Virus record (IMG/VR): IMGVR_UViG_3300021399_000099
Coordinates: 64,001-128,000 of that record
DNA: 64,000 nt
Source: a virus
Taxonomy: Duplodnaviria; Caudoviricetes
Strand: one strand, 5' to 3'
Shown: positions 4,370 through 38,132 of the stretch, in pieces
How the letters are laid out: each line of letters opens with the position of its first letter
Position numbering within the stretch: position 1 is the stretch's first letter
Translations under genes and position numbers: made by a program
The notes under the pieces: generated by a model
What the model was told of the DNA's origin: nothing
What the model saw: the letters and a program-made list of their open reading frames with translations, nothing else
The model's database searches: none

Positions 4370-4387
4370 TACAAAAACCGTGCCAAA
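4370..4387 (-). promoter_or_regulatory. sigma54-type -24/-12 promoter TTTGGCACGGTTTTTGTA
   Basis: Matches TGGCACG-N4-TTG(C)W; 47 nt upstream of ATG 4323. Confidence 0.7.
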
Positions 4388-4482
4388 CACAAGGCTTTCG
4401 CTATTAACAATATTAAAATACAGACTTTTTTTCGAAAAACCAACTCTTATCAATATTTTTCATAAAAAAACCACATTAAAAG

Positions 4483-4492
4483 ACTATTTATA
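4483..4492 (+). promoter_or_regulatory. putative late promoter ACTATTTATA
   Basis: About 20 nt upstream of ATG 4512. Confidence 0.55.
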
Positions 4493-4511
4493 TGAAAAGA
4501 ATTCTTTTATT

Positions 4512-5156
4512 ATGACTATTAACGAAAAAAGACAACTAAGCAACTATATTAAAGGGCTTGTACGTGAATCCCTTGGTGAGATGGACAATATGCCCAGCTG
4601 GTACAATGAGAAGAATCACGGCTTCGGTGATGAAGACGAATACGACGACTTCAAGAGCGGTTTCGAAAATGACGAAACCGACGGTGGGTTTGATGATTAT
4701 TCTGGGGAGAACGATGGGAATGATTTCTGGGAAGAATATGGTCAGGAGCAGCCCGGAAGGCATTATGAGGGTCCGGATGTAAATCCAGTGGCCGATGAGG
4801 AAGATGAACCTGCAGGACTCGATGAACTCCGCCGGCTTGCTGAATCTTACGCCCGTCAATCAGTTGCTCAAATACTTTCCGAGAGCAAAAAAAAGAATAA
4901 AAGAAAGAACAAGAAAGAGAAATCTTCAAGTAAGGATAAAACCGTTATTTCTCAGTTAAATGCTGACGGTACAAATGCCGCCCACTACTACTACAAACTT
5001 TATGGTGTAGAGAATGGTACGGACGCAGAAAAAGCTGCCGCAAGAAGCAAGGGTTATAAAAAGGCTAAGGGTAAGAAAAACGACACAGGAGTTCCTTACA
5101 AATTCACTTCAAAGGAAAGGAACAGACTTAATTCCCTCCTTACCGACAAGAAATAA
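4512..5156 (+). CDS. acidic/basic low-complexity protein, candidate internal head protein
   Basis: Start reassigned to MTINE; LVRESLGE and ILSES leader-type motifs; acidic middle, Lys-rich C-terminus. Confidence 0.65.
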   Translation: MTINEKRQLSNYIKGLVRESLGEMDNMPSWYNEKNHGFGDEDEYDDFKSGFENDETDGGFDDYSGENDGNDFWEEYGQEQPGRHYEGPDVNPVADEEDEPAGLDELRRLAESYARQSVAQILSESKKKNKRKNKKEKSSSKDKTVISQLNADGTNAAHYYYKLYGVENGTDAEKAAARSKGYKKAKGKKNDTGVPYKFTSKERNRLNSLLTDKK

Positions 5157-5160
5157 AAAC

Positions 5161-5191
5161 AATCCCAGGCATTAAGGACCTGGGATTTTTT
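5161..5191. terminator. intrinsic terminator
   Basis: AATCCCAGG / CCTGGGATT stem plus T-run between convergent genes. Confidence 0.75.
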
Positions 5192-5372
5192 ATCTATAAA
5201 CAACAGTCAGCCTTCCATCCTGATGTTCTTTTATGAACTTTTTAGCTTTTCTTATGCTTTCCGTAAAATATTCATCAATGACCCAGGTAGTGTGCTCGCC
5301 CATTTTTCCTTCAATTGCCAACCAATGAATATATCTCGTGTATTCTATTCTATACCACTTTTTAGTTCTCAT
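5190..5372 (-). CDS. hypothetical protein
   Basis: ORF tiles the minus-strand operon. Confidence 0.55.
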   Translation of the reverse strand: MRTKKWYRIEYTRYIHWLAIEGKMGEHTTWVIDEYFTESIRKAKKFIKEHQDGRLTVVYR

Positions 5373-5383
5373 AAGATTTTATT

Positions 5384-5734
5384 CTAAAGCTCTTTCCAAG
5401 TATAATCATATGCCAGTTCATCTTCGGTAGCCAGGCCATCCTTGTCCCCGATATAAAAGCAATCCAAATCAAAGGCCCTTGCCCGGTAAGAACCATACGT
5501 GCCACAAAATTCGTATGCACTTGAAATAAGGTTATGCAGTTCAATCATCTCGCTCTTGTCAAGTTTTATCTTGGCGGCAAGCGGAACGTCTTTACCAGTC
5601 TTTTCCTTTAGGAAGCCCCGCATTTTGTCTGTAAATACTACGAGCCGATAGAAATCCTTGGTAATCTTGTATTTCCCGTCTTTCCACTCTTCAAGACCGG
5701 ATATTAGATTATAATCTAATTTAAAGCTCCCCAT
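5384..5734 (-). CDS. hypothetical protein
   Basis: ORF tiles the operon. Confidence 0.65.
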   Translation of the reverse strand: MGSFKLDYNLISGLEEWKDGKYKITKDFYRLVVFTDKMRGFLKEKTGKDVPLAAKIKLDKSEMIELHNLISSAYEFCGTYGSYRARAFDLDCFYIGDKDGLATEDELAYDYTWKEL

Positions 5735-5739
5735 AAGAA

Positions 5740-6273
5740 CTAAAGTTGCTTTTTCCTGATTTGAACAATGACTTCGTCACTCATTTTAAATTTATCAAGA
5801 ATATCATCTGGCCAATCGAGAACCGTGGGCCCAACTATCCAGCCCACCTTTGTATTGAATGACGCTCCCTGCCCAGCTATCCACTCGGCGCCGGCTTTGA
5901 ATATATTTTTAACTATTTCCGGCTTTAAAAAGTTTTTATTTTGTGTATCGGCATATTTCTCTGCTGCCTCATCAACATTATCCGGCAGTTTAGGAATCTG
6001 AGCATTACGCCACTCTGCTCCCTCCTTAAAAGATTCTCTCGCATAGGCGTGTTCAGAATAAGTACAATTATCTGCCGCCTCGTCAATGTTTGGGGAAAGT
6101 GAAGATTCAATAATTTCACCGAATTGCCCATCTAAAACCCTATGGCACATTTCGGCAATATCTTCAACTTTGTCTTGTGCGTATTCATCAGCCGTATAGT
6201 TCTCGTTGTTTATTACAAGGTCACATTTACGAATAATGAACTTTAACAAATCTTTTACGTCTTCTCTTGTCAT
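5740..6273 (-). CDS. hypothetical protein with duplicated N(I/V)DEAA...FK(E/A)GAEW module
   Basis: Start reassigned to MTREDV; internal repeat visible. Confidence 0.7.
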   Translation of the reverse strand: MTREDVKDLLKFIIRKCDLVINNENYTADEYAQDKVEDIAEMCHRVLDGQFGEIIESSLSPNIDEAADNCTYSEHAYARESFKEGAEWRNAQIPKLPDNVDEAAEKYADTQNKNFLKPEIVKNIFKAGAEWIAGQGASFNTKVGWIVGPTVLDWPDDILDKFKMSDEVIVQIRKKQL

Positions 6274-6278
6274 AATCT

Positions 6279-6476
6279 TTACTTGTATTGTTTTCCGTAA
6301 TCGTCTTCCACAACATAGACACCGTAGTTCTTGTGGTAGTCCTCGTTGAGTTCCTTGCACTTTTTCAGTGCGTCGCGGAGCGTATGGTTATCACTCCATA
6401 TGCAATCATACGAACCGTCAAAATGATACCGAACGATTGTGTATATCGGGAGGTTAATTGGTTGTTTATTTTCCAT
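6279..6476 (-). CDS. hypothetical protein
   Basis: ORF tiles the operon. Confidence 0.6.
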   Translation of the reverse strand: MENKQPINLPIYTIVRYHFDGSYDCIWSDNHTLRDALKKCKELNEDYHKNYGVYVVEDDYGKQYK

Positions 6477-6478
6477 AT

Positions 6479-6871
6479 CTATATTAAATTTTCAAGGCAA
6501 TATTTAATAGCCGCTTCACAGGCTTCTTCATAACTGTTAAACCAGTCCCATTGCATTTTACTTGGAATGGGAATTTCCTGTTTTTGAATGAATACTTCAT
6601 ATCCCCAATTTTTATCACTGCCTATTACAGTATTGATACCAATGAAAAGATTATGGGTTTTTCTCAACCACTTCATTGTCATTTGAAGTGTTGGGGCATG
6701 AATACACCCAATAAGCCCATCACTATAGTATATTGAAATTGGAGAGTCAAAAAATTTTATTTTTTCTGGCGTTTCAGATAAAGTATAATAGTAGCCAATA
6801 GTGTCTTCGTCAAATCCTTTCTTTTTCAAGAGTTTTGCCGTTTCAAAACTTACGTAATCTTCGGTAATCAT
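6479..6871 (-). CDS. family A paralog 1 (MITEDYVSF...KWLR...YCLENLI)
   Basis: Three constant blocks shared with 4 other copies. Confidence 0.85.
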   Translation of the reverse strand: MITEDYVSFETAKLLKKKGFDEDTIGYYYTLSETPEKIKFFDSPISIYYSDGLIGCIHAPTLQMTMKWLRKTHNLFIGINTVIGSDKNWGYEVFIQKQEIPIPSKMQWDWFNSYEEACEAAIKYCLENLI

Positions 6872-7119
6872 AATTCTTTTATTTCCCTGATATAAGCATC
6901 AATTTTTTTTCTTGTAAGCCATATTGTGTTACTTTTTCCGCCTTTTGTACGGAAAGTTCTAAACGTGCCCACACTTGTACCTTTGTACCATCCTTCAGAC
7001 TGTTCCTTTGAAACCTTTTTTCGGAACATAAGGAGGCGTTTTATGTTAGTTCCGAAATGTTTTTGGAAGTATTTGCGTTCGTAGTTATTCAATCCTACGG
7101 TATCATGTTTTTCGTACAT
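6868..7119 (-). CDS. hypothetical protein
   Basis: ATGA overlap with the next gene. Confidence 0.6.
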   Translation of the reverse strand: MYEKHDTVGLNNYERKYFQKHFGTNIKRLLMFRKKVSKEQSEGWYKGTSVGTFRTFRTKGGKSNTIWLTRKKIDAYIREIKEL

Positions 7120-7218
7120 TTTATTTCTTCTCCGTTATGTCTAGTTCTGGGTTTTTCCGGGTCTATCTTCCCACCCATATAATCATTAAGAATCTTTATT
7201 GCTTCTTCCTTATTCATA

Positions 7219-7446
7219 TTACATTGAGTTTAGTTTGTTGATAAGTTTGTCTAACATGAGTCTCCCACCATTAAGGGTGTCCTCATTTTTCCACTCCTTT
7301 TTATAAGCTTGTTTGAGCCACGCCTTCTGTCCTTTTGCCCAATCCAGCAGAACGTCCTTACTGAGATAGCAAACATGATAAGGCAAACTTTCCGTCAATT
7401 CTTCTGCACTTATCTCATGCACATAAATCTTATCTGGTGCTTTCAT
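7219..7446 (-). CDS. hypothetical protein (MKAPDKIY type)
   Basis: ORF tiles the operon. Confidence 0.6.
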   Translation of the reverse strand: MKAPDKIYVHEISAEELTESLPYHVCYLSKDVLLDWAKGQKAWLKQAYKKEWKNEDTLNGGRLMLDKLINKLNSM

Positions 7447-7610
7447 TTAGTTTCCTCATTTCTTACGTTAAAGTCTTCACAATATTCGTGACCAAACACA
7501 TGGACTATTGTCGTGTGCGGATTGGTGCATATACCCTCCGGCTCGGTGCCCTCTGAACCGCTTATCGTTGGCTCATAATACTTGCAATACAAACAATAAT
7601 ACTTACTCAT
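7443..7610 (-). CDS. small Cys-rich protein (MSKYYCLYC...), absent from the ORF track
   Basis: 55-aa ORF fills the gap with ATGA overlaps at both ends. Confidence 0.6.
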   Translation of the reverse strand: MSKYYCLYCKYYEPTISGSEGTEPEGICTNPHTTIVHVFGHEYCEDFNVRNEETK

Positions 7611-7885
7611 TTCTTCCTTGCTTTAAGACCAAGTTCGTAGAAGTAATAAGCAATATTATTTAAAGTACCCCACCCAAAATCGCCATTTGGCTTATACCTT
7701 CTTGCCGCTTCCTCTAATTCCTTTTCCAAATCAACCTCTGGCTGTTCCTGCTGGAGAGAGGTAATGATAGAAAGGACATGATAGAGATTACCCTGCAAAT
7801 TGTCATATCCGCTATCGATAAGAAACTGTATCTGCGTTTTCAGTTTATCTGCGTCAATATATTTGTTCATAACGTTACTTATCAA
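7607..7885 (-). CDS. family C paralog (KYIDADKL...TSLQQEQPE)
   Basis: N-terminal and QQEQP blocks shared with 8080..8487. Confidence 0.7.
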   Translation of the reverse strand: MISNVMNKYIDADKLKTQIQFLIDSGYDNLQGNLYHVLSIITSLQQEQPEVDLEKELEEAARRYKPNGDFGWGTLNNIAYYFYELGLKARKK

Positions 7886-8090
7886 GCCATTTTAATGTTT
7901 CGTAATCCACTTGAATCAAGGCAGAAGATACGCCATTTCTGTAATCTAACGCAACCATAGACAATGTTCCGTTGGAATATTTCCTTCCCCTATCGACTTG
8001 AACATTTACTGCACAGTCGCGACCGATGTCCGTACGAATTTCCTGTAACCTCTCAATAAGCCCGTCGAGAGTCATTAATTTATTTTCCAT
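7875..8090 (-). CDS. hypothetical protein
   Basis: ORF tiles the operon. Confidence 0.6.
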   Translation of the reverse strand: MENKLMTLDGLIERLQEIRTDIGRDCAVNVQVDRGRKYSNGTLSMVALDYRNGVSSALIQVDYETLKWLDK

Positions 8091-8487
8091 TTTGATTCTT
8101 CTTATAAGCCCATTCTTCGACTAAAGTTTGTTCATCCCACGTACTTTCATCTTCGAAAGTATAAACCCATCCATCTTCTTCGTCAAACTCAACATTTACA
8201 ATTTTACCGAGAAGATACTCTCCTTCTTCATTTGAAGTATTGATGTAATAGGCAAGAACATCACCGACATTCCACCTCGACTTTTTCCCATGGACATACT
8301 CGGTTGATAGATAGCCATATTCTGGTTGCTCATCCGGTTGTTCCTGCTGGATGGAGGTGATGAATCTCCTGATGTCTTTCAAGGCACATTTATATCCGTA
8401 TTCTGCGTCCCCATCTTCAAAACCTTGTTCTTGAAGTATCCGCCTTTCTATCTCGGCAATCAGTTTTTCTGCGTCGATGTATTTCAT
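8080..8487 (-). CDS. family C paralog (MKYIDAEKL...TSIQQEQP) with a different C-terminal module
   Basis: Shared blocks. Confidence 0.75.
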   Translation of the reverse strand: MKYIDAEKLIAEIERRILQEQGFEDGDAEYGYKCALKDIRRFITSIQQEQPDEQPEYGYLSTEYVHGKKSRWNVGDVLAYYINTSNEEGEYLLGKIVNVEFDEEDGWVYTFEDESTWDEQTLVEEWAYKKNQNGK

Positions 8488-8496
8488 AAACTAAAA

Positions 8497-9563: not shown

Positions 9564-9581
9564 TGCAAAAACCGTGCCAAA
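9564..9581 (-). promoter_or_regulatory. sigma54-type promoter TTTGGCACGGTTTTTGCA
   Basis: Perfect -24 GG / -12 GC consensus. Confidence 0.75.
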
Positions 9582-10372: not shown

Positions 10373-10390
10373 TGCAAAAACCGTGCCATA
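10373..10390 (-). promoter_or_regulatory. sigma54-type promoter TATGGCACGGTTTTTGCA
   Basis: Perfect -24/-12 consensus. Confidence 0.75.
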
Positions 10391-10419: not shown

Positions 10420-10851
10420 TTATTCCCAAATTACATCAATCGTTATTTTTCCTTCCACGTCATCCCACTTGCATTGCTTGCAGATGTTCGGGAAATCTTT
10501 GCTCGTCTCAGGATACCACTCAGAAAGTATGTTTCCAATCTCATACGGGTATATTTCTGCGGCGTGCATTGATAAACAGTTCATACTGCAGATAAACCAG
10601 GCTTGTTCTGTGTCCGGTTCATCATCAAATGTGAAAAACATAACACCACTCCGCACGTATGTCACCGTCAATTTTCTCCAACGCATTTTTTCACCATCGT
10701 AATGCCAGAATTTCCTGCCGACCTTGATGTATGCTTTAACCGCCTCGTCATGCTTGCAGAAAAGTTCATATAAACGCGTGGCAAACGTAGTGCGACTATA
10801 GTTTTTGTTTATGAAATCAAGTATTTGTTGCTCTATGTTATCCTTTTCCAT
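10420..10851 (-). CDS. hypothetical protein
   Basis: ORF tiles the operon. Confidence 0.65.
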   Translation of the reverse strand: MEKDNIEQQILDFINKNYSRTTFATRLYELFCKHDEAVKAYIKVGRKFWHYDGEKMRWRKLTVTYVRSGVMFFTFDDEPDTEQAWFICSMNCLSMHAAEIYPYEIGNILSEWYPETSKDFPNICKQCKWDDVEGKITIDVIWE

Positions 10852-10852
10852 A

Positions 10853-11230
10853 TTAAATCAAGTTTTCAAGACAGTACTTAATAGCGGTTTCGCAGGCTTC
10901 TTTATAGGTAGAAAAACTGCATAATGATTCACCCATTTTTTGACTTGAATCATTCATAAGCCAAATAGACCACCACCATTTGTAGCTTGTTAAAGGGTCG
11001 ATAACTATAAAAAGAAAATGTACTTCCCTCAACCATTTCATTGCCATTTGGAGAGTAGGACAAGTACATGTCATATCTTCTCTTAAATCGCTATTCCACC
11101 ACTCATCACGCTTAAGATTCTTCAAATAACCTTCATGTGGCTTACAGTAGAACATCTCACAAACTTCGTTAAACCCCTTCTCCTTCAAAAGTTTAGCGAT
11201 TTCAAAACTGACGTAATCTTCAGTAATCAT
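10853..11230 (-). CDS. family A paralog 2
   Basis: Start reassigned to MITEDYVSF by paralog alignment. Confidence 0.85.
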   Translation of the reverse strand: MITEDYVSFEIAKLLKEKGFNEVCEMFYCKPHEGYLKNLKRDEWWNSDLREDMTCTCPTLQMAMKWLREVHFLFIVIDPLTSYKWWWSIWLMNDSSQKMGESLCSFSTYKEACETAIKYCLENLI

Positions 11231-11378
11231 AATTTTCTTTTTTATTTCCTTTCCACCAAGGACAACCGAGGCACATTTTATCAACCTCGTCCGGCTTCTT
11301 ATTTTCATCCGTTTTTTTACCAGAACACCACATTGGACTGTCCCATGACCAATGCATACCACATTTTGCAACAGCCAT
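11220..11378 (-). CDS. small Cys/Trp-rich protein (MAVAKCGMHW...), absent from the ORF track
   Basis: 52-aa ORF fills the gap between B1 and A2. Confidence 0.55.
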   Translation of the reverse strand: MAVAKCGMHWSWDSPMWCSGKKTDENKKPDEVDKMCLGCPWWKGNKKENYDY

Positions 11379-11390
11379 ATCTATTCAGTT

Positions 11391-11750
11391 TTAATACATT
11401 CCTTCTTTTGCTTCAAGAGCAAGCCCCATTGGAATAAGACCACGATAGTCAAAATGATTCTCAATTAACCACGTTATTAACTCTTCAGCATTTATCGCAT
11501 TGGGTCTTAGTGATAGTTCTTCAATGTGAATGTTATAATAGCCGGATTCATCGTATGTCATACTTTCCATAGGACGGAGATAGGGCTTGCACTCTCGCAC
11601 TACGACATTATCCGTATAATTTAGGGTTCCTGTTTTAATATCAACCTCACGTAATTCTATATTTGCACCATCATTTCTATGGTATATAACCCCGTAAGGT
11701 AACCTCGCAGAAAGGTCCTTTAATAGTAGTTCTTTTTCCTCTTGTGTCAT
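11391..11750 (-). CDS. family B paralog 1 (MTQEEKELLLKDL...KPYLRPM...FDYRGLI...ALEAKEGMY)
   Basis: Three constant blocks shared with 3 other copies. Confidence 0.85.
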   Translation of the reverse strand: MTQEEKELLLKDLSARLPYGVIYHRNDGANIELREVDIKTGTLNYTDNVVVRECKPYLRPMESMTYDESGYYNIHIEELSLRPNAINAEELITWLIENHFDYRGLIPMGLALEAKEGMY

Positions 11751-15784: not shown

Positions 15785-16084
15785 TTAAATGCTTACGGTT
15801 GTGGTGTCGGTTTGCGGCATAGGTTCCTCAAGCACTTCAATCCTGGTTTTCAGTTCTTTTATTTGTTTGTCATAGCTATAACAGGCCCGACCGAGCATCA
15901 AAGCCAGTGACAAGTAGATGGTCAAGCCGAATACATACAACCAAACACTAACTCTATTCTTCGCCTTTTCCTTGGTATCGTAGTCGGTTTCTCTCGAACA
16001 TTTCTTAACATTGTCGGCAACAATATCGGGGACAATACTCATAACGATGCCAAAAACGACCAAAATAATAAAATACAGTACCAT
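15785..16084 (-). CDS. 2-TM membrane protein
   Basis: Two hydrophobic segments. Confidence 0.65.
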   Translation of the reverse strand: MVLYFIILVVFGIVMSIVPDIVADNVKKCSRETDYDTKEKAKNRVSVWLYVFGLTIYLSLALMLGRACYSYDKQIKELKTRIEVLEEPMPQTDTTTVSI

Positions 16085-16842
16085 TACTCTCCTACGTTAA
16101 TAAGTTTCTCAATATATTCTCTTCCTTCTCCCTTGAAAATAGGGATGTTATAATCCACAACCCAGTGTCCTTCCTCGTCCTTGATGCAGCACATTCCTCT
16201 CTGCTGTTTGGTGGGGAGGTTGTTCCATAGAATACCGGTTTTTTCTTTAACCATTGTGATAATATCATCGGTACTCTTTTTGTGGAGTTCCTTGTGCGAA
16301 AAATGTGCCTGACCGAGTGCCTGGATGGAATTACGGATAGCGTCTTGTTGTCTCCAGAGCACACAATTTGTGACTTCCTCTTTCGGTACGTTGAAAGCTC
16401 GACAATCGAAGAAGACGCCCTTGCTCAATGCCTTGTCATAAACCTCCGGATTTCTCTCATTTGACAAAAACTTAAAGCTGCCCATGGCTTCGATAAACTT
16501 CCAGGTAGCCATTGAAGCCGCGACCGATACCATCTTCTGGATACTGTTGTTGAACCAAGAACTGGTATTAAGTTCCTGATAATCAACAAGAACCAGCGTA
16601 ATCTCGTCGCTTTGCGTATAGCCGAGGACACACCCCTGGATATTCTCACAAAGGTATCTCATCGTCATTTCCATGGACTTGGCAAAAATCTTGTCGTATG
16701 GCTTGGCAAATCCCTTGGTAAAAGTGTGGAATGCCCTGCCGTCAAGCCTTAATATAACCGGCATTCTGCTGATGAGGTGGTTTCTTGTGATATTCTCGTA
16801 TCCCTTCATGCGGTCACCGAGACTTGTCTTATCTGTCGCCAT
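16084..16842 (-). CDS. thg1: tRNA(His) guanylyltransferase Thg1-like protein (3'-5' polymerase)
   Basis: LGDRMKGYE, RLDGRAFHTFT, YTQSDEITL, FDCR, WRQQDAIRNSI motifs. Confidence 0.93.
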   Translation of the reverse strand: MATDKTSLGDRMKGYENITRNHLISRMPVILRLDGRAFHTFTKGFAKPYDKIFAKSMEMTMRYLCENIQGCVLGYTQSDEITLVLVDYQELNTSSWFNNSIQKMVSVAASMATWKFIEAMGSFKFLSNERNPEVYDKALSKGVFFDCRAFNVPKEEVTNCVLWRQQDAIRNSIQALGQAHFSHKELHKKSTDDIITMVKEKTGILWNNLPTKQQRGMCCIKDEEGHWVVDYNIPIFKGEGREYIEKLINVGE

Positions 16843-17189: not shown

Positions 17190-17207
17190 TACAAAAACCG
17201 TGCCAAA
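17190..17207 (-). promoter_or_regulatory. sigma54-type promoter TTTGGCACGGTTTTTGTA
   Basis: Recurrent motif; heads the thg1 and cassette-array operon. Confidence 0.7.
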
Positions 17208-17221: not shown

Positions 17222-18637
17222 TTAGGCGAGACCGATTTCCTTCGCCTTTTTCTTGACAAATGCCTCGGCCTCGTCAAAGTTGTTTCCAATCACACCGTCC
17301 AGAATTGCTTCCTTCACGGCATCTTTCAGCACAGCGATAGTCTTGGACGGCTTAAGGTGGAATGTCTCCATGATATAGTCGCCAGTAATCGGGTTTTTAA
17401 AGTTCCGGATTGCGTCTTTCTCTTCAACCTCAGCAATATGTTTCTCAATTATGATGAGGTTGTTGTAGATTCTCGTTCGCTTCTCTTCATACTTGGTAGT
17501 CACATCGCACTTTGCCAGAATGAGCAGGTCGTCGATATCGTCTCCGGCATCGAAAAGGAGCCTGCGAATTGCACTATCGGTAACCCCCTCCTCAGCAAGT
17601 GTAGTAGGACGCATATGCATATCGACCAGCTTTCTCACATGTTCCGCCATGTCCATAGGAAGGTGAAGCCTGCGGAATATACCTTCAATCATCTTGGCAC
17701 CTGCAGGGGCGTGACTTTCAAAAGTCCAACCGCGTTTTTCATCGTATTTCTTGGTCACGGCCTTACCGATATCATGGAGAAGGGCGGCCCAACGAAGTGT
17801 CAAGCTGTCAGACATTCCGGCAACATTGTCCAGGACCCTCATAGTGTGGTCAAAAATGTCCTTGTGACCCTTATCTCCGGGCATACGTAGGTTATCTACT
17901 TCCGGCAAAATAAATGGCAATAAACCGGTTTCTTTGAGCAATATGAAACCCTGTGACGGTTTCTTTGAGACCAGTATTTTGTTCAGTTCCTCGGTGATAC
18001 GCTCCCCGGAAAGAGTCTTTATTTCTTCCTTGCACTCTTTTATTGCCTCAAATGTCGGTGTAGCAATGTGGAACTCCTTACCTGGACGAGACAGTTTGCA
18101 ACGGAAGCGGATACAGCGAAGCATACGTAAAGCATCTTCCGTAAATCTGTCTTTCGGCTCGCCAACGCATCTTATAATTCCATCCTGTAAATCGTTTAGA
18201 CCACCAAATAAATCAACCAATTCACCAAAATCTGCATCATTGACACTTATACACATTGCGTTGATGGTAAAATCTCTTCTCTTCAAATCATCTTCGAGCG
18301 TCCCGTCAAACACAAACGGTTTTCTGGACCCCCTCTTATAGACTTCTTTCCTGGCGCCAACGAACTCCACCTTCTGGTCTCCGTATTTCACCATAGCCGT
18401 GCCAAAGTTCTCATACACAGTGAGTTCGCCATTGGTCAATTTTGAAAACTCCTTGGCGGCCTTGATACCGTCACCAACACACAGGAAGTCAATGTCATCG
18501 TTGTCAATGCCGAGAACAAGGTCCCTGACAAATCCACCTACAACATATATCTTGGCTCCGGTAATCTTGGCGGCACTGGAAGCCAGCAGGAAAACCGGGC
18601 ACTTAATCAATTCGTCTTTATAGTTCATTCTTGCCAT
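17222..18637 (-). CDS. cca: CCA tRNA nucleotidyltransferase (class II) with HD domain
   Basis: VGGFVRD, DIDF, DLKRRDFTINA, FTEDALRMLR, ERITEEL, LLHDIGK motifs. Confidence 0.92.
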   Translation of the reverse strand: MARMNYKDELIKCPVFLLASSAAKITGAKIYVVGGFVRDLVLGIDNDDIDFLCVGDGIKAAKEFSKLTNGELTVYENFGTAMVKYGDQKVEFVGARKEVYKRGSRKPFVFDGTLEDDLKRRDFTINAMCISVNDADFGELVDLFGGLNDLQDGIIRCVGEPKDRFTEDALRMLRCIRFRCKLSRPGKEFHIATPTFEAIKECKEEIKTLSGERITEELNKILVSKKPSQGFILLKETGLLPFILPEVDNLRMPGDKGHKDIFDHTMRVLDNVAGMSDSLTLRWAALLHDIGKAVTKKYDEKRGWTFESHAPAGAKMIEGIFRRLHLPMDMAEHVRKLVDMHMRPTTLAEEGVTDSAIRRLLFDAGDDIDDLLILAKCDVTTKYEEKRTRIYNNLIIIEKHIAEVEEKDAIRNFKNPITGDYIMETFHLKPSKTIAVLKDAVKEAILDGVIGNNFDEAEAFVKKKAKEIGLA

Positions 18638-20761: not shown

Positions 20762-20779
20762 ATCAAATATCGTGCCAAA
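20762..20779 (-). promoter_or_regulatory. sigma54-type promoter variant TTTGGCACGATATTTGAT
   Basis: -24 element intact, -12 is TTGA. Confidence 0.6.
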
Positions 20780-20841: not shown

Positions 20842-21705
20842 TTAGAATGAAAGATGTTCGGCCACAGCAAACTTTTTCATCTTTTCAATGGCCCCGTTCT
20901 TTAACTGTCTAGCCCTTTCACTTGACATTCCCAGTTCCTCTGCAATCTCTGCATTGGTGTATTCCTTGTTGTACCCGATACCGAAAGACATTTTAATGAC
21001 GGTCTGTTCCCTTTCAGTAAGTGAGGATATAAGGGCTCCGCTTACAGCTGAGTTGAAATCATCGTCCATCACCGGGAGATAATCATTATCAACGGCGGTC
21101 TTTTCAGTAAAGTATGGGGTGTTTTCAAAGGCCCTGGCATCTTCATCATCAAAGCAAGTGTTGATGGAAGTTGTGGATATGTCGAGAAGGTCTGTTTTGT
21201 CCTTGATTTTAAGACCATATTCCGCCTCAAGGATAGCGGCAATCTCATCTACGTCCGGGTAGCGGTTGTTATCAGCGTAGAACTTTTCCTTAATCTTGGA
21301 AAGCTTATAAACGGTTTTCGTGTTGTTTGTCTTGCGAATCAGCAAGTTGTCATTGTTCAAGTAGGCATTGATTTCCCTTCTTATATACCAGATTGCATAC
21401 GAAAGAAAACGATTACCCTTGGAGGCGTCAAAGGTGTCAAGGGCCTGCATAAGACCGATATTACCTTCATTGACAAGGTCGAGTACGTTATCGTCATTAC
21501 CATATCTTTTGGCTACGGCATAAACAAAACGTTGATTTGCGGCGATAAGGTGATTCCTGGCATCAATGTCTCCATTCCTCATCTTTTTTATAAGGTCGGC
21601 TTCTTCGGCGGCAGTAAGAACTTTATACTTGTTGATTTCTTTGAGATACACACTGATTGAGTGGTCAGCATTAATAAATCCAGTTTTCTTTTCTTTTAAA
21701 TTCAT
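20842..21705 (-). CDS. phage-encoded RNA polymerase sigma factor, RpoD/SigA family (short Bacteroidota type)
   Basis: YLKEI region 1.2, ANQRFVYAVAKRY, DLVNEGNIGL, RFLSYAIWYIR, region 4 HTH SSERARQL; 287 aa. Confidence 0.92.
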   Translation of the reverse strand: MNLKEKKTGFINADHSISVYLKEINKYKVLTAAEEADLIKKMRNGDIDARNHLIAANQRFVYAVAKRYGNDDNVLDLVNEGNIGLMQALDTFDASKGNRFLSYAIWYIRREINAYLNNDNLLIRKTNNTKTVYKLSKIKEKFYADNNRYPDVDEIAAILEAEYGLKIKDKTDLLDISTTSINTCFDDEDARAFENTPYFTEKTAVDNDYLPVMDDDFNSAVSGALISSLTEREQTVIKMSFGIGYNKEYTNAEIAEELGMSSERARQLKNGAIEKMKKFAVAEHLSF

Positions 21706-23208: not shown

Positions 23209-23226
23209 TACAAAAACCGTGCCAAA
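23209..23226 (-). promoter_or_regulatory. sigma54-type promoter TTTGGCACGGTTTTTGTA
   Basis: Abuts the TAG of the upstream gene. Confidence 0.7.
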
Positions 23227-24435
23227 CTACATGTTAAGCCCGTAATATTTGGCACGGCAATAAATGGTAAGGTCATTGACGAAATCCTTATCAACCTCGT
23301 CCGGCAGATTGCTCTTAGGAAGATTTTCATTTACATCAGCAAGAAGTTTCTCCGCATAGTCAATAAGATACTCGTAAGTATAATCACCATTTTTGATACC
23401 CATAAGGAAATCACGGTCATCAGTTCTCCAGAGATTGAAACCCTTACCCTCGGAGATTTCCTTGGCCATAGTGAGAAGACGTATGCAATGGCACATGTTC
23501 TTCTGGTTATAACCAGCCTCAACCGCCTTGGAATAACGCTTCTGGTTACGCTTCTCAACCCACTCCTGATACTCCTTATACTCACGGCAATGGCATGTAT
23601 AGGCGTCCTTGTTATAAGTCATGAAGCAAATAGGAACCTCACCCTTTGGAATCGAGGACAGACGCACCTCATTGGATTTCTCAATATCTTCCGGATAAAC
23701 GATACCGGAATAGTGGAAGAATTCTTTATTGTCAATCCTATATTCAATCTTACGGAGAGTATATTCATAATCACCGCCATGATACCAATTTTTCAGGATA
23801 CTATACCTATCAAGAGCACTATCAATCCCTTCAAACTTAAAGTATGCAGCGAAGTCATAATAAACTCCATACACATCTTTCATATTCGGGATACTAACAA
23901 GGCCACAATATCTCTGGTCAAGATTATGCTCTTTAAGCCATTCCTTAATCGGCTGGCTTCCCTGGTTCTTAAAGGTGTAGCAGAAATCCAGCACGTCCTT
24001 ACGCTCGGTTACCGGATTCACAATCTTCTTCCCGAGACCACGAGCCTTCTTAATCTGGTTGAAAGCGTAACCGGAAAGGGACTTGACAACCTCTTTGGAA
24101 ACGAACTTGTCCCTGTTTTTAAGAACTTCACGAATTACCGGATGAACATCCCCGACAGTAAGTCCGTCTGGCACAAAGAGACTCTCCAGTGCATTCGGGT
24201 TACCTTTACTGAGAAGGGTCATCCACTTGCCGAACTCATGATATGTCTCGTCATGCTTCTCGTCGGAAACCTCCTCCTGGTAGTCTGCACCAAGACCGAT
24301 GAGTGTAGCCAACGGAGCAAAATATACACCGTGATAGTCGATATCGCTGTCTGGACCGTCGAGATTCTGACTATGACTGCCAGCAACATACTTGTAACCA
24401 ATAAGGCCTTTCTCCTCAATATCTTTAATCGTCAT
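23227..24435 (-). CDS. predicted Pol-beta superfamily nucleotidyltransferase (Nuc-transf/YcgL-like)
   Basis: GSHSQNL...SDIDYHGVY, KGNPNALESL, KNMCHCIRLL, LMGIKNG motifs. Confidence 0.85.
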   Translation of the reverse strand: MTIKDIEEKGLIGYKYVAGSHSQNLDGPDSDIDYHGVYFAPLATLIGLGADYQEEVSDEKHDETYHEFGKWMTLLSKGNPNALESLFVPDGLTVGDVHPVIREVLKNRDKFVSKEVVKSLSGYAFNQIKKARGLGKKIVNPVTERKDVLDFCYTFKNQGSQPIKEWLKEHNLDQRYCGLVSIPNMKDVYGVYYDFAAYFKFEGIDSALDRYSILKNWYHGGDYEYTLRKIEYRIDNKEFFHYSGIVYPEDIEKSNEVRLSSIPKGEVPICFMTYNKDAYTCHCREYKEYQEWVEKRNQKRYSKAVEAGYNQKNMCHCIRLLTMAKEISEGKGFNLWRTDDRDFLMGIKNGDYTYEYLIDYAEKLLADVNENLPKSNLPDEVDKDFVNDLTIYCRAKYYGLNM

Positions 24436-24844: not shown

Positions 24845-24862
24845 TACAAAAACCGTGCCAAA
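24845..24862 (-). promoter_or_regulatory. sigma54-type promoter TTTGGCACGGTTTTTGTA
   Basis: Recurrent motif immediately after the upstream stop. Confidence 0.7.
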
Positions 24863-25573: not shown

Positions 25574-25591
25574 TACAAAAACCGTACCAGA
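25574..25591 (-). promoter_or_regulatory. sigma54-type promoter variant TCTGGTACGGTTTTTGTA
   Basis: GG retained with correct spacing. Confidence 0.6.
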
Positions 25592-31093: not shown

Positions 31094-31111
31094 TACAAAT
31101 ATCGTGCCAAA
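31094..31111 (-). promoter_or_regulatory. sigma54-type promoter TTTGGCACGATATTTGTA
   Basis: Abuts the TAG of rfbB. Confidence 0.65.
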
Positions 31112-32182
31112 CTATATCTCGTTTTTCTTTTTTTCTATATTTTTCACCCAATCCTGGTTTTCAAGGTACCAATCAACCGTTTTTGTGACCGCTTGTAACA
31201 GACCTACTTTCGGTACCCATCCAAGTTCATCGGTAATCTTGCTATGGTTTATCGAATAGCGGAAATCGTGCCCGGGCCTGGCATTTTCTACACATTTTAT
31301 TTTGTTAAGGGTCTTTTCATATTTGTCACGGTATTCCTCGACACCATTTGTAGTTTTAAGGACCACTTGATTTATAATATTGGTAATCAATTGAAAGTTT
31401 TGTACCTCTTCCCCAGACCCAATATTGTATGCCTCACCAAGGGCACCCTTTTCGAATACGGTCATTGCAGCTGATACAATGTCGTCGGTATAAATCCACT
31501 CCCTGACCTGCTCACCTTTGTCATAAACGATAATAGGTTCATTGTTAATGATACGCTGGATTGTGGCTGGCACGAGCTTTTCCGGATATTGATTAGGACC
31601 GATGGCGTTGCACATATGACTGGTTACTACCGGGAGCTTGAATGTCTTCCAGTATGCCTTTACAAGAAGGTCGCCGCACGCCTTCGAAGCAGAATATGGG
31701 CTGGAGGGGTCAAGCTTGTTCTCCTCGGTAAAGCTCTCCCCATCCTTGTCCAGGAAACCGAAAACCTCGTCGGTGGAGAAATAATAGAACTTATGACCTG
31801 GTTCATTCCCCCAACACTTCCTCGCTTCTTCAAGCAAGTTGAATGTACCCACGATGTTTGTCTCAATAAAAGGTCTAGGCCCGGTAATGCTGTTATCCAC
31901 ATGAGACTCTGCGGCAAGATGAATGACGTCGGTTATGTCGTATTCGTCAAAAACCCATTCAACCTCTTCTGGGTCACGAATATCATAACGAGTCCATTGA
32001 TAATTGTTGGTTGCTGGCGTTTGAATGTCCTTCAGGTTATCCGGATTACCAGCATATGTTTCGCAATCCATATTAACAATGAACCAGTCCTTGTGTTCAT
32101 TGACCAAGTGTCTTACGATGTGACTACCGATAAAGCCAAGCCCACCGGTAACAAGAATTCTTTTAGCGTAATTTTTTTTCAT
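31112..32182 (-). CDS. rfbB: dTDP-glucose 4,6-dehydratase
   Basis: VTGGLGFIGS, TYAGN, HLAAESHVDNSI, STDEVFG, PSSPYSASK, YPEKL, RPGHDFRY motifs. Confidence 0.93.
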   Translation of the reverse strand: MKKNYAKRILVTGGLGFIGSHIVRHLVNEHKDWFIVNMDCETYAGNPDNLKDIQTPATNNYQWTRYDIRDPEEVEWVFDEYDITDVIHLAAESHVDNSITGPRPFIETNIVGTFNLLEEARKCWGNEPGHKFYYFSTDEVFGFLDKDGESFTEENKLDPSSPYSASKACGDLLVKAYWKTFKLPVVTSHMCNAIGPNQYPEKLVPATIQRIINNEPIIVYDKGEQVREWIYTDDIVSAAMTVFEKGALGEAYNIGSGEEVQNFQLITNIINQVVLKTTNGVEEYRDKYEKTLNKIKCVENARPGHDFRYSINHSKITDELGWVPKVGLLQAVTKTVDWYLENQDWVKNIEKKKNEI

Positions 32183-33765: not shown

Positions 33766-33767
33766 TT

Positions 33768-34037: not shown

Positions 34038-34059
34038 ATTCTTTAATTGTTTATTTAAG

Positions 34060-34108
34060 TATTATTAATATTAATAATATTATATATATAATAAATATTA
34101 ATATATAT
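34060..34108. repeat. 49-nt pure A/T tract with 20-bp perfect palindrome (34060-34079)
   Basis: TATTATTAAT|ATTAATAATA; also contains ATAAATA (late motif on the minus strand). Confidence 0.7.
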
Positions 34109-34110
34109 CT

Positions 34111-34482
34111 TTAGAATGAAACCGCCAAATCTATCTTTAAGGGAACATCGGCGCACTTCAACTCCGGGAACATACTTTCCATAATTTTTGGTATTCGTAT
34201 ATTAACTTCCCCCTCAGACAAGAGAAACGGCTGGCCAGATGACGCGTTAATGTATTTCTTTGGTCGCTCGTTTGAAAGATACTTGGCACCTGTTTCCGGG
34301 TCTTTAAAATACCACAAACTCATTGTCTTCCCTGTGGGCTCAAACGGTGCATTATCTGCCAATAGCTTAATAACCAGAATATCAATCAGTTGCTCTTTGG
34401 TCAGCTTCTTGAGCATTTTTTCGTAATCGCTAGCTTCACTGAGAGTTTCCGTTATATTTTTAAAATCTTCAGTAACGTTCAT
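34111..34482 (-). CDS. hypothetical protein
   Basis: ORF. Confidence 0.6.
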   Translation of the reverse strand: MNVTEDFKNITETLSEASDYEKMLKKLTKEQLIDILVIKLLADNAPFEPTGKTMSLWYFKDPETGAKYLSNERPKKYINASSGQPFLLSEGEVNIRIPKIMESMFPELKCADVPLKIDLAVSF

Positions 34483-35161
34483 CTCTTTCTTTTCTATATT
34501 CGTTCAATATTTTTTTTATCTCCTTATAGGACCCTTCTGGCATTGGGGTGTAAAAGCCATAGGTACGTTCCCAAACATATTTCTTTTTCCTCTCGTAGTA
34601 TTCTTCCTTATCAATTTTTCCTGCAAGGTACTCGTTTCTGGTTGTTTTATATGATAGATTGTCTTCAAGACGGTAGTCAATCTGTTCATAATCATATACA
34701 TACAAATCAACATCAGTAAGCTTCTCTTCAAGGAGTTTCATTATTCTTTCCCTGTCGCCGCCCCCTTCAAAGTCTGCGTATCCAATAATCGTCGTTGCCA
34801 CCCGCTTTCCATTGAACTCCTTGTTAATCAGTTCTAAACAGTTCGCAAGTGCTTCATAATCAACGGTATCCGGTATCTTGTCCGGTCTATATCTTCCCCG
34901 GCTTATATAGCATAGGGCAAACAATGGGGAAGCAAGCGGTGCCTTACCCCTGACGACCCTGACTGTGCCAAGTTTCCTGGGGTCTCCATATGCCGTTTCC
35001 TTATTGCTCATTGCGACGTTTTTAAAACTGAGTGCGACTTTATGCTGAAAGCCGTTTCCCATTGTGTTCATAATATTTACGCCGACGAGCACGACATCAT
35101 AGCCATTGACGTCATAAATCAGGTCCTTGTCTTCAATGATTGTCATGGCATTTTTATTCAT
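34469..35161 (-). CDS. macro-domain-like protein
   Basis: DLI...VLVGVNIMNTMGNGF, LGTV, DYEALANCL, IG...GGD motifs. Confidence 0.7.
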   Translation of the reverse strand: MNKNAMTIIEDKDLIYDVNGYDVVLVGVNIMNTMGNGFQHKVALSFKNVAMSNKETAYGDPRKLGTVRVVRGKAPLASPLFALCYISRGRYRPDKIPDTVDYEALANCLELINKEFNGKRVATTIIGYADFEGGGDRERIMKLLEEKLTDVDLYVYDYEQIDYRLEDNLSYKTTRNEYLAGKIDKEEYYERKKKYVWERTYGFYTPMPEGSYKEIKKILNEYRKERDERY

Positions 35162-35684
35162 ACATTTCTTCCTTTGCTTCAAGGGCAAGACCCTTCTCAA
35201 TTAAGCCACGATAATCAAAATGATGAGCATTGAGCCAATCGTATATTTCGGAGAACTCACTTATTTCAATTGAACCAATGTCTGGATGTTGTGCTTGCAA
35301 TCCATAATAATAAGGCGGCTCTTGTATGAAAAAGTATGCGATGTTTCCGTACTTCTCATTCAATTCTTTTAACTCTTCCTCAGTCATACTTGACATTGGA
35401 CGGAGATAAGGTTTGAAATCATCTATGGTATAGGGGTCTCCCCAGGCCTGTTGCTCTTCTATGAAATCAACGGTATCTTCATTACCGATAGCAACCACAT
35501 GTATTTCTTCTGTTGAAGTGTTGATATCATCCAGTATCACATCAAATGGTGAGTTAAAAAATATCATGTCTCCATTTATATCATATTCCCCATTTGTGGT
35601 TTCAGCATACACTCTGCCTTTTACATCATACGGCAATCTTGCACAAAGGTCCTTAAGTAAAAGTTGTTTTTCTTCTTGTGTCAT
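35154..35684 (-). CDS. family B paralog 4
   Basis: Constant blocks; 41-nt block identical to copy 3. Confidence 0.85.
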   Translation of the reverse strand: MTQEEKQLLLKDLCARLPYDVKGRVYAETTNGEYDINGDMIFFNSPFDVILDDINTSTEEIHVVAIGNEDTVDFIEEQQAWGDPYTIDDFKPYLRPMSSMTEEELKELNEKYGNIAYFFIQEPPYYYGLQAQHPDIGSIEISEFSEIYDWLNAHHFDYRGLIEKGLALEAKEEMYE

Positions 35685-36067
35685 TTTTCTTTAACTTTTA
35701 ATGGTACAAAAACATCATATCCATCATCATCCTGGAAATGGTTTATATCCTCATCATATGTGCAGCCGAACTTGGTACGCTTATAAGTAAAAACTTTGCC
35801 ATTCCACACCGCTTCGCTTGCATTCCGGCAGTTTCCAATATAGGTCTCTCCAACGACTAACTTATCCTTTGGAATAGCCCCGCAACGGATAAAGTTAGGG
35901 ATTACATACTTGTCATACAGTTCCTTGTCAAGAACCGGTGGCTCGGGTATGAACTCCTCCGTAAAAGGCTCCATCTCCTCCAACCGCTTGATAATCTTTG
36001 GAATACGGTTTTCTCTTTCTTCCCGTAGCTTGTCATATATTTTCTGTATGTTTTCTGGTGTTGTCAT
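35681..36067 (-). CDS. conserved phage hypothetical protein
   Basis: IPKDKL..G..Y.G.CRNA..AVW...DDGYDVFVP. Confidence 0.7.
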   Translation of the reverse strand: MTTPENIQKIYDKLREERENRIPKIIKRLEEMEPFTEEFIPEPPVLDKELYDKYVIPNFIRCGAIPKDKLVVGETYIGNCRNASEAVWNGKVFTYKRTKFGCTYDEDINHFQDDDGYDVFVPLKVKEK

Positions 36068-36070
36068 AAT

Positions 36071-36256
36071 TTACTCAATATTTATATAATCAAAATCCGG
36101 TCGGTTCCACGGATAATTAGTATCCACCCACGTCCTCTGTGATATCTCAAGCTTGTTGTAATCAGCTTCCGGGGGCCACATAATATTCATATCAACGGCG
36201 ACCGGCATATCCTGTGGGCACTTCTTCAGTTCATCAATCAGTTCTCTTACCGTCAT
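36071..36256 (-). CDS. hypothetical protein (MTVRELI type)
   Basis: ORF tiles the operon. Confidence 0.6.
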   Translation of the reverse strand: MTVRELIDELKKCPQDMPVAVDMNIMWPPEADYNKLEISQRTWVDTNYPWNRPDFDYINIE

Positions 36257-36259
36257 ATG

Positions 36260-36514
36260 TTAATCCTCATTAAACTTCGGTATCGGCATCCAAGCGACTA
36301 TCCCGTGGCATATTTGCCCCTGGTACCATCCACGTTTCTCGCTTCTCCACTCGCCATTCCTCGTATAATCTATTATCGCGCCATATATCGAGTCCCATGC
36401 TAAGACCCTCTCGCTTTCAGTCCATTCGTGGTGTCCCTGCATATTGTCGGATTCGTACTTATGTTCTTCCGGCATCCGTTCGCTACACTTAATCCATTCC
36501 ATATCACTTCTCAT
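36260..36514 (-). CDS. DUF551-like protein
   Basis: WIKCSERMPE...VAWMPIP. Confidence 0.75.
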   Translation of the reverse strand: MRSDMEWIKCSERMPEEHKYESDNMQGHHEWTESERVLAWDSIYGAIIDYTRNGEWRSEKRGWYQGQICHGIVAWMPIPKFNED

Positions 36515-36686
36515 TATTTTCTATCCAGCTTTCGATTTTCAAATCCACACTGGTACAATTTTCCTTATCGGAACCGTCATAACCACCCCATCCGTAGATT
36601 GCAAGCGCCTTGGTCACATAATCGCTGTCAATGATGCAAAGCTCAGCCTCCGGGTTAAATTCAAATAAATCCTTTACTTTCATATC

Positions 36687-37784
36687 TTATTTCTCCTTCT
36701 TGTATTCTTCCAGTGCCTTTCTCTGTTCCTTGCTTAGCTTGGTCGGCACGTCATATTTTATAATAACAATGTAGTCTCCTTTCATTGCCGCGTATCCATT
36801 TGTGTTTAAAAATCCGCCCCTGTTTTTTGTGAAACGCTCTTCTGGTGCAGTGCATTCGTGGATGTTTATGGTCCAGTCACTTCCGTCCGGGCATTTTACT
36901 GTGATTTTTCCACCAAGCAAAGCATCAACAAAGCTGACCGTTTCTTCGTGGTAGATGTTTAAATCATTAGCGTCTCCAATTTCGAAATAGCCAGGGGTTT
37001 CTTGGACGACAGTTAGATGGAGCAACAAATTTCCCTTTGGATACCCAGGAGTTCCGTCTTCACCCATTTGGCTGTAAATAATTGTCATTCCATCACGAAG
37101 CCCTCCGGGTATATTCAACGTTACCTTCTCTTCTTCTTCAACGAAGCCGGTACCGCCACATTCTTTGCAGGGTTTATCTATCTGCTTACCGGTTCCGTGG
37201 CAATGCTGGCAAGGCGTCTGGTACATCGTAAATGCGTTACCCTGTCTCTGTGTCTTTGTTTCCATCCCGGTTCCGTGGCAGTATGGACATTCATGCTTCT
37301 GTCCGTCCTCACTTCCTGTGCCATTACAATGATGACAAGAAACACTCTTTTTAATAGTAACTTCCTTTTCAAGTCTTTCTTTAAGTGACTCAGCAAAAGT
37401 AATTGTTACGTAAGCATCTACATCCCTACCTGCATGACCACTTTGTCTTCTATGACTGCCAAAACTACTGAAGAAATCGCCGAAACCACCCATTCCAGCA
37501 GCCTGTCGCATAGCCTCGAACGGGTCAAAACCACCACCCATATCCTGCCATTGCTCATCTGCGCCACTGTCATATTGCTTACGTTTCTCTTCATCACCGA
37601 GAACACCATAAGCCTCGGCGACCTTTTTGAATTCGTCTTCAGCTTTTTTCTTCTCGTCTTCGGTGCCATTAACCCAACGGTCCGGGTGCCATTTCATGGC
37701 CAATTTCCTATATGCGGATTTTATTTCTTCCTGGCTTGCATTCTCGGCAACCCCAAGTGTCTTATAATATCCTTTAATGTCCAT
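36687..37784 (-). CDS. dnaJ: DnaJ chaperone (type I)
   Basis: J domain with HPD, G/F region, four CxxCxGxG repeats. Confidence 0.93.
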
Positions 37785-37810
37785 TATTTAATCTCTTTTC
37801 CTTTCTATAC

Positions 37811-37828
37811 TACAAATATCGTGTTAAA
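37811..37828 (-). promoter_or_regulatory. degenerate sigma54-type element TTTAACACGATATTTGTA
   Basis: Identical to the 31094 copy except GG to AA. Confidence 0.45.
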
Positions 37829-38089
37829 CTAAATTAAACCCATGTGAATATCCTCACACATCTCCTCATACCACGCCAGCCAAGCCTTGTACGACTTGAA
37901 ACCGGCTTCCTTCCACTGTGGTGTCTCCTTCGGTGGCTTCTCCATAGTCTTCTTGACCTCATAGTGGAGACCGAGTTTTCCCTCAATGGATTTGGCAATC
38001 TTGTGGTACATAGCCTTCTTAACCTTCTTGTGGGAATGGTAGGTAGCAATAAGCTCACCATTCTCGTATAAGTTCCAAATAATTTTCAT
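37829..38089 (-). CDS. hypothetical basic protein
   Basis: ORF after promoter 38115. Confidence 0.65.
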   Translation of the reverse strand: MKIIWNLYENGELIATYHSHKKVKKAMYHKIAKSIEGKLGLHYEVKKTMEKPPKETPQWKEAGFKSYKAWLAWYEEMCEDIHMGLI

Positions 38090-38114
38090 ATCACATCCGT
38101 TTTACCCCCTATAC

Positions 38115-38132
38115 TACAAATACCGTGCCAAA
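38115..38132 (-). promoter_or_regulatory. sigma54-type promoter TTTGGCACGGTATTTGTA
   Basis: Heads the minus-strand block at the strand switch. Confidence 0.7.

Follow-up and report, generated by a model that had tools for sequence, protein, structure and literature searches.

Putative sigma-54-type (-24/-12) promoters serving the non-structural genes of a large phage that probably infects Bacteroidota

Phages are textbook users of sigma70-type promoters or of polymerases that they encode themselves, whereas sigma-54 is structurally unrelated to sigma70 and remains locked until an ATPase opens the promoter. In the classical cascades, SPO1 proceeds through gp28 and then gp33/34 and T4 passes from early promoters to gp55, and T4-type phages carry early cassettes built of a promoter and a stem-loop. 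A described lytic phage with a sigma-54-type promoter, served by host machinery and supported by an experimental transcription start site (TSS), is the Pseudomonas phage YuA, whose promoter P015 (Ceyssens et al. 2008) was re-mapped in PMC10914365; in YuA, such promoters number one or a few and stand alongside others that are sigma70-type or phage-specific. Here we describe a phage known from sequence, the 216,910-bp linear viral contig of IMG/VR record IMGVR_UViG_3300021399_000099, in which, unlike in YuA, sites of the sigma-54 type appear dominant and sigmaA-type promoters are missing. Our analysis started from a 64,000-nt stretch covering bases 64001-128000 of this contig (the window; coordinates refer to it unless marked as contig) and from a recurrent motif within it, termed class I, whose copies are likely sigma-54-type promoters read by the RpoN of the host.

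A search of the window with the pattern TTTGGCACGRTWTTTGYA (2 mismatches or fewer) returned 11 matches, all on the minus strand, against 0.01 expected, and none of 100 shuffled sequences reached 11. This reproduced the copies, positions and strand given in a preliminary description of the same DNA. The next open reading frame (ORF) was co-oriented with every copy, its ATG lying 11-46 nt past the motif end. A position weight matrix (PWM) built from all genomic copies of the motif and scanned over the whole window recovered the same 11 sites plus one marginal site (59007-59028, minus strand). The preliminary description had proposed a match to the sigma-54 consensus with exact spacing, including two perfect copies; indeed, 9 of the 11 copies fit TGGCACG-N4-TTGCW with at most 1 mismatch, and those at 9564 and 10373 are perfect. 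GG was present in 10 of the 11, and both the GG-to-GC spacing (10 bp) and the G at -13 were invariant. The -12 base was T instead of C in 7 of the 10 scored copies, so TTGT does prevail over TTGC as had been claimed, and the remark that several copies adjoin an upstream stop codon applies to five of them (23209, 24845, 25574, 31094 and 37811). The putative promoters, all on the minus strand, are as follows.

4370..4387, minus strand: class I (sigma-54-type) promoter, PWM score 30.6; ATG of the TROVE/Ro60-like gene 46 nt downstream.
9564..9581, minus strand: class I promoter, perfect TGGCACG-N4-TTGCA, PWM score 34.4; ATG of a 98-aa ORF 32 nt downstream.
10373..10390, minus strand: class I promoter, core perfect; followed at 32 nt by the ATG of a 104-aa ORF whose start resembles a signal peptide.
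17190..17207, minus strand: class I promoter before a 104-aa ORF and then the Thg1-like gene; CCA-adding enzyme gene upstream.
20762..20779, minus strand: class I variant with TTGAT at -12, PWM score 22.7; ATG of a 51-aa membrane-like ORF 11 nt downstream.
23209..23226, minus strand: class I promoter of an operon of a 45-aa ORF, DUF6557, 103-aa and 112-aa ORFs and a sigma70-family factor.
24845..24862, minus strand: class I promoter before a 121-aa ORF and then the RlaP-like nucleotidyltransferase gene.
25574..25591, minus strand: class I variant, TGGTAC; ATG of a 225-aa ORF 32 nt downstream.
31094..31111, minus strand: class I promoter adjoining the stop of a GDP-mannose 4,6-dehydratase-like gene (31112-32182); ATG of a 93-aa ORF 15 nt downstream.
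37811..37828, minus strand: degenerate copy without GG (TTTAACACG), PWM score 14.2, at noise level; before the DnaJ gene (36687-37784).
38115..38132, minus strand: class I promoter, first of the minus-strand block, PWM score 30.5; before an 86-aa ORF and then DnaJ.

With only 11 nt between promoter and ATG, the transcript from 20762 would be nearly leaderless. The promoter at 25574 was identical in four further metagenome assemblies. The copy at 37811, previously listed as a degenerate member, stands as a sequence match but is probably non-functional or decayed, since it lacks GG and its score is no better than noise. For DnaJ, co-transcription from the promoter at 38115 is likely.

In the contig and in its relative G004, the extended profile was aGTTTGGCACG(g/a)-N3-TTGCA, its information being concentrated in a pair of blocks separated by one helical turn. 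The sigma-54 consensus YTGGCACGr-N3-TTGCW was thus reproduced down to such minor positions as the Y preceding TGG, the R following CG and the W following TTGC, and the core and GG-to-GC spacing are identical to those of bacterial sigma-54 promoters such as glnAp2, pspA and nifH. As in those promoters, the phage sites are oriented upstream of genes; a start about 11 nt past -12 is predicted. The A+T content of the 10 nt past the motif was 77-79%, compared with 58% genome-wide, and a conserved leader block, TGTAAC(C)AAT, starts about 12 nt after the GC, which by its position is the expected sigma-54 start. At contig 183035, the mature 5′ end of a tRNA-Arg lies 14 nt past the motif, so that a start of the -24/-12 type leaves a 4-nt leader; with TTGGCA taken as -35 and a -10 hexamer 17 bp on, the start would fall inside the tRNA. 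A sigma70-type -35/-10 architecture, with two hexamers 16-18 bp apart and a start 6-8 nt past the -10 hexamer, did not fit the motif, whose conserved blocks are 4 bp apart. Bacteroidetes sigmaA promoters (TTTG-N18-21-TAnnTTTG, with TTTG at -33 and TAnnTTTG at -7) were not enriched either in the window (1 vs 2.0 expected) or in the contig (4 vs 4.0). The phage sites differ from bacterial sigma-54 promoters in three respects: about 70 copies are packed into 217 kb of virus, some of them driving tRNA genes; neither a cognate gene for a bacterial enhancer-binding protein (bEBP) nor a conserved upstream activator site was found; and T occupies -12 in most copies outside contig 28-58 kb. Within that block, C was present in 39 of 44 copies, compared with T in 7 of 10 in the window and in 11 of 16 at contig 128-184 kb, and there are two class I subclasses differing at this base.

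The whole-contig scan that the preliminary description had called for revealed a regulon about 7 times larger than it had noted. TGGCACG-N4-TTGYW was matched exactly 46 times, with none in a reversed-pattern control, and 73 times at 1 mismatch or fewer, about 70 of these being genuine-looking; exact matches in four Bacteroidales genomes (2-5 Mb) numbered only 0-2 each. As judged by same-strand ORF geometry, the roughly 70 sites point the same way as the ORF that follows, whose ATG is typically found 22-38 nt downstream (mode 33), and at contig 28-58 kb nearly each small ORF carries its own copy. Copies also stand directly before tRNA genes (contig 183035, 180967 and 177920). Outside the window, contig 162435-183020 (minus strand) holds 47 tRNA genes together with a tmRNA and a CUA-anticodon (amber suppressor-type) tRNA, and some tRNAs of this array have a sigma-54-type promoter 14-56 nt upstream. 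Behind the window copies lie genes for S-adenosylmethionine synthetase, a nucleotide-sugar dehydratase, DnaJ and a sigma70-family factor, in addition to the following RNA repair and tRNA-maturation set.

2695-4323, minus strand: TROVE/Ro60-like RNA-binding protein gene.
16084-16842, minus strand: Thg1-like tRNA-His guanylyltransferase gene.
17222-18637, minus strand: CCA-adding enzyme gene with an HD domain.
23227-24435, minus strand: RlaP-like nucleotidyltransferase gene.

The enterobacterial rsr-rtcBA RNA repair operon is sigma-54 dependent. The assignment of the motif to accessory, non-virion genes in the preliminary description also holds, the large plus-strand genes using ACTATTTAT instead. 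We infer that the motif would be the main promoter class for non-structural genes, comprising early-type cassettes, RNA repair and tRNA maturation, nucleotide-sugar and nicotinamide adenine dinucleotide (NAD) enzymes, DnaJ, tRNAs and a sigma gene.

Scanning for the exact pattern and for the RlaP-like protein brought up related jumbo-phage contigs, four of which carry the motif.

G004: 80 kb, 23% complete, 35% GC, 36 sites at 1 mismatch or fewer.
G010: 302 kb, 82% complete, 16 exact sites.
G011: 344 kb, 93% complete, 6 exact sites.
G012: 361 kb, 100% complete, 34% GC, about 17 sites, mostly in one 20-kb block and one before a tRNA.

The leader type and the tRNA placement are common to the contig and these four relatives, and since the shared proteins are just 38-60% identical, the promoter type is conserved across a deep divergence. 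No motif was found in the more distant relatives G013-G025. In G013, which lacks it, Bacteroidetes sigmaA promoters were enriched (8 vs 1.2 expected in 77 kb). A sigma gene of about 295 aa stands directly behind sigma-54-type motifs in G010, G011 and G012, whereas its orthologue in G013 has a textbook Bacteroidetes sigmaA promoter in front, and thus the sigma-54-type sites fill the slot occupied in this relative by host-holoenzyme (early) promoters. The sigmaA-type promoter of G013 is itself a highly conserved 32-nt element, TTTGCAAAATTGAAAAATTTTACTTAnnTTTG, placed 19-38 nt before ATGs (e.g., contig 255784, 263198, 276014, 290344 and 302523).

DNA near-identical to the contig was found in rumen, bovine and goat gut metagenomes from 8 studies. 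CheckV put its completeness at 61%, which implies a genome of about 350 kb (a jumbo phage). BACON and Fib_succ_major domains are present in large plus-strand window proteins, and all best genomic matches of the GDP-mannose dehydratase-like gene were from Bacteroidota (45-50% identity); on these grounds, the host is probably a member of the Bacteroidota and, within it, probably of the Bacteroidales. The two domain-bearing proteins are listed here.

40450-42699, plus strand: Fib_succ_major-domain protein, probably a surface or receptor-binding virion protein.
46698-50603, plus strand: three-BACON-domain protein, probably a surface or receptor-binding virion protein.

A megablast of 15 kb against a phage collection gave no match, a search for loci related to a 1313-aa protein found no relatives, and the contigs encoding the 225-aa protein behind 25574 were near-identical DNA assemblies only.

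Such a host could supply sigma-54, as rpoN was present in 150 of 151 sampled Bacteroidales genomes and, in an alignment of Bacteroidales RpoN proteins, Region I was intact and the RpoN box invariant. In Flavobacterium psychrophilum, TSS-mapped -24/-12 promoters drive groES-EL, lon, dnaK, grpE-dnaJ, htpG and clpB (PMC9723704); its motif SM4 is of the same promoter type and comes from the same phylum as the likely phage host. A position-specific scoring matrix survey predicted the same enrichment for Bacteroidia, with grpE and groES sigma-54 dependent in B. thetaiotaomicron (PMC12316311). Consistent with these reports, we found that 19 of 33 Bacteroidales have the -24/-12 motif 33-79 nt ahead of groES (1 in the reverse-complement control, a mean of 0.2 in shuffles); the motif also stands upstream of grpE (3 of 4 genomes), htpG (3 of 3) and one clpB. 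The host groES, grpE and htpG motifs, (t)TTGGCAC-N5-T.GC, resemble the phage sites, some host copies also having T at -12, and the phage, like the host sigma-54 regulon, includes homologues of DnaJ and of ClpB. The latter is given below.

Contig 5106-7742, plus strand: ClpB/ClpA-type two-ring chaperone, 878 aa, two AAA modules.

Unlike those of the phage, the host promoters combine a weaker -12 with longer leaders (33-79 nt to the ATG), and TGTCA/TGACA repeats often lie ahead of them. Given that sigma-54 of the Bacteroidota runs a chaperone regulon, the phage promoters would amount to idealised host heat-shock promoters.

The repeats form TGTCA/TGACA inverted repeats, often present 20-60 bp upstream of Bacteroidales groES/grpE/htpG promoters (loci L181, L183, L184, L187, L190 and L191), and they are candidate enhancer sites of a Bacteroidia heat-shock bEBP. 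They were 3.4-fold enriched at G012 promoters, where GTTGTCAG was 15-fold enriched upstream, and showed no enrichment upstream of promoters of the contig or of G004; a general enhancer role in the phage regulon was therefore rejected.

The preliminary description had also envisaged a phage-encoded RpoN or a GAFTGA-containing activator, and neither was found, even in the complete relative G012. A six-frame Pfam search of the contig for Sigma54_DBD and Sigma54_CBD gave nothing, Sigma54_DBD gave nothing significant in G004, G010, G011 or G012, and a custom hidden Markov model (HMM) from four Bacteroidales RpoN proteins gave nothing in the contig or G012. No bEBP or GAFTGA-like loop was found in the contig, G010, G011 or G012. 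Matches to Sigma54_activat (PF00158) were rejected as bEBPs, being ClpB-like chaperones and classical-clade AAA proteins of about 380 aa without GAFTGA, to which the following gene belongs.

Contig 10519-11649, plus strand: classical-clade AAA+ protein, 376 aa, no GAFTGA.

Orthologues of this 376-aa protein occur in the motif-bearing G010-G012 (48-50% identity) and partly in the motif-less G013, and because G013 also has one, it is a weak candidate helper only. No domain of the RNA polymerase beta′ subunit was found in the contig or in the complete 361-kb G012, and these phages therefore depend on the host core polymerase. A DYDGD motif in a G012 ORF was considered as a beta′ catalytic loop and rejected, the ORF being a T4 gp21-like prohead protease with an insertion. 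Because the phage encodes neither sigma-54 nor an ATPase activator, it most likely borrows the sigma-54 of its host.

Collectively, all of the sequence-level tests that we ran favoured the sigma-54 reading, which is supported by the consensus, the orientation of the sites, the tRNA geometry, conservation in relatives, the absence of sigmaA-type promoters and the near-universal host rpoN. Under it, host core RNA polymerase with host RpoN would bind the class I sites and start about 11 nt past -12, class I serving as the early or accessory promoters of the phage. A stress-responsive host bEBP might fire them without a dedicated upstream site, and weakened repression at -12 (T for C) together with the AT-rich melting region may help firing. 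The class I output would include the phage sigma70-family factor, which could redirect the polymerase to the ACTATTTAT class of large structural-type genes. This order would resemble the cascades of SPO1 and T4, where host-read early promoters at small cassettes lead to a phage sigma and then to late structural promoters, and the units of hairpin, promoter and small ORF resemble T4-type cassettes; unlike in SPO1 and T4, entry would be through sigma-54 and not through the housekeeping sigma.

Several points weigh against this reading. The sigma-54 holoenzyme normally needs a bEBP for opening, and none is encoded by the phage, nor is there a conserved upstream site in the contig. With some 70 or more promoters in each genome copy, a sigma factor that is normally scarce would be heavily titrated. 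Of bacterial sigma-54 promoters, 96% conserve C at -12 (PMC4551910), compared with T in 7 of 10 scored window copies; a non-consensus -12 element, for its part, is correlated with transcription that bypasses the activator (PMC4551910). Within the 28-58 kb subclass, TTGGCA followed by TATAGT about 16-17 bp on superficially resembles a -35/-10 promoter, and the phage itself encodes two sigma70-family factors. Finally, the contig is only 61% complete and its host is placed at the phylum or order level only.

The two sigma factors are as follows.

20842..21705, minus strand: phage sigma70-family factor, 287 aa, regions 1.2, 2 and 4, most similar to SigA/RpoD/RpoS.
Contig about 206847-207557, minus strand: second phage sigma70-family factor, 236 aa.

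The first, about the size of the Bacteroides primary sigma factor, comes from the final gene in the operon behind the 23209 promoter. It is probably produced by the class I programme and probably recognises promoters of a later class. A candidate for that class is the class II motif.

38264..38271, plus strand: class II promoter-like motif (A)CTATTTAT, 24 nt upstream of a 711-aa gene.
40410, 42767, 60312 and 4484, plus strand, and 2673 and 33447, minus strand: further class II copies.

The motif (A)CTATTTAT has a T-run about 14 nt upstream and sits 16-41 nt before the ATGs of large genes (711, 749 and 1297 aa in the window, and also 1121, 796 and 591 aa). About 23 gene-proximal copies were present in the contig, and the motif is conserved in G012, with 44 of 66 copies gene-proximal. 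Class II (ACTATTTAT) is probably a separate, late class for large genes of virion or surface type, read by a phage sigma factor.

The presence of these two genes is also what gives some weight to the foremost alternative, in which a phage-encoded specificity factor (a sigma70-family protein or an unrecognised protein) reads the class I motif and its likeness to sigma-54 is convergent. Such a factor would avoid both the activator problem and sigma-54 titration, and in the 28-58 kb subclass TTGGCA and TATAGT stand about 16 bp apart, like a -35/-10 pair. Conservation, however, resides in TGGCACG and TTGCA, 4 bp apart, while TATAGT is weakly conserved and absent from the window subclass, and a -35/-10 start would fall inside the tRNA-Arg. 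A fit to sigma-54 at 12 of 12 consensus positions plus spacing is a most improbable coincidence. Two sigma70-family factors, about 290 and 235 aa long, are encoded by every phage of the wider group whether or not it carries the motif, so that these genes do not co-vary with the motif; moreover, the gene of about 295 aa lies behind the motif in G010-G012, and that factor could not start the programme. We regard this alternative as unlikely.

Alternatively, the phage might have its own divergent rpoN, a bEBP or both on the 39% of the genome missing from the contig, and a phage copy of rpoN would solve the titration problem. Against this, the complete G012 and the 82-93% complete G010 and G011 have the promoters and no Sigma54_DBD, RpoN-HMM match, GAFTGA or bEBP. 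A scan of IMG/VR with the Bacteroidales RpoN alignment, which used two peptide patterns and had limited sensitivity, found host-like rpoN (45% identity) on only two contigs. We consider an own rpoN or activator of the phage very improbable. Least probable is that the sites are not primarily promoters and act as recombination handles at cassette junctions, or as decoys or roadblocks for sigma-54, binding its holoenzyme but never firing: several copies adjoin stop codons, a unit of hairpin, promoter and leader is repeated around diverse small ORFs at 28-58 kb, and sigma-54 complexes stay closed without an activator, but the sites strictly follow the orientation of the downstream genes and keep a fixed distance from start codons and tRNA 5′ ends, no other promoter class was seen for these genes, a decoy needs neither orientation nor position, and a recombination role is compatible with promoter function.

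Returning to sigma-54-type promoters read by host RpoN, activation through the host heat-shock bEBP is a reasonable possibility, though one to which we give somewhat less than an even chance, and a phage helper or partial bypass of the activator is a more doubtful one. We also tentatively suggest, as a rather speculative scenario, that a lineage of Bacteroidota phages with genomes of about 350 kb abandoned housekeeping-sigma promoters and runs its early/accessory programme, its tRNAs and its own sigma from host sigma-54 with no bEBP of its own. Such a lineage may have plugged into the host sigma-54 heat-shock circuit, the stress of infection itself then firing the phage genes. Alternatively, it may bypass the activator through the T at -12, through the AT-rich melting region or with a phage helper other than a bEBP, such as the conserved classical-clade AAA+ protein.

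The preliminary description knew of no phage programme organised in this way. YuA is a precedent for the use of a sigma-54 promoter as such, and for a programme dominated by them our literature search found no paper. New here are the scale, which includes tRNA and phage sigma genes, the absence of sigmaA-type promoters, the replacement of the promoter class in a relative, and the link to the Bacteroidota heat-shock response. If the sigma-54 reading is true, the phage could shut off all sigma70-family transcription of its host without harming itself, its gene expression would be tied to a host stress circuit, that of the Bacteroidota chaperone regulon, and the mechanistic question would be how about 70 enhancer-dependent promoters fire without an enhancer or a phage activator. 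It would also offer a testable explanation for sigma-54-type motifs in uncultivated phages, and class I sites could be strong, compact and orthogonal promoters for Bacteroidota genetics.

Upstream of the promoters of the contig, no conserved activator element was found save a box, ATTTTAATATACCCC, in a subset of them. This box lies at about -45 to -30 of class I promoters at contig 30-47 kb, as upstream of the contig sites 32443, 36410, 38262, 42594, 43971 and 46104, and TATACCCC was 34-fold enriched in intergenic DNA. It could be a regulator site or a cassette junction. A GGTAC...GTACC hairpin precedes other class I promoters.

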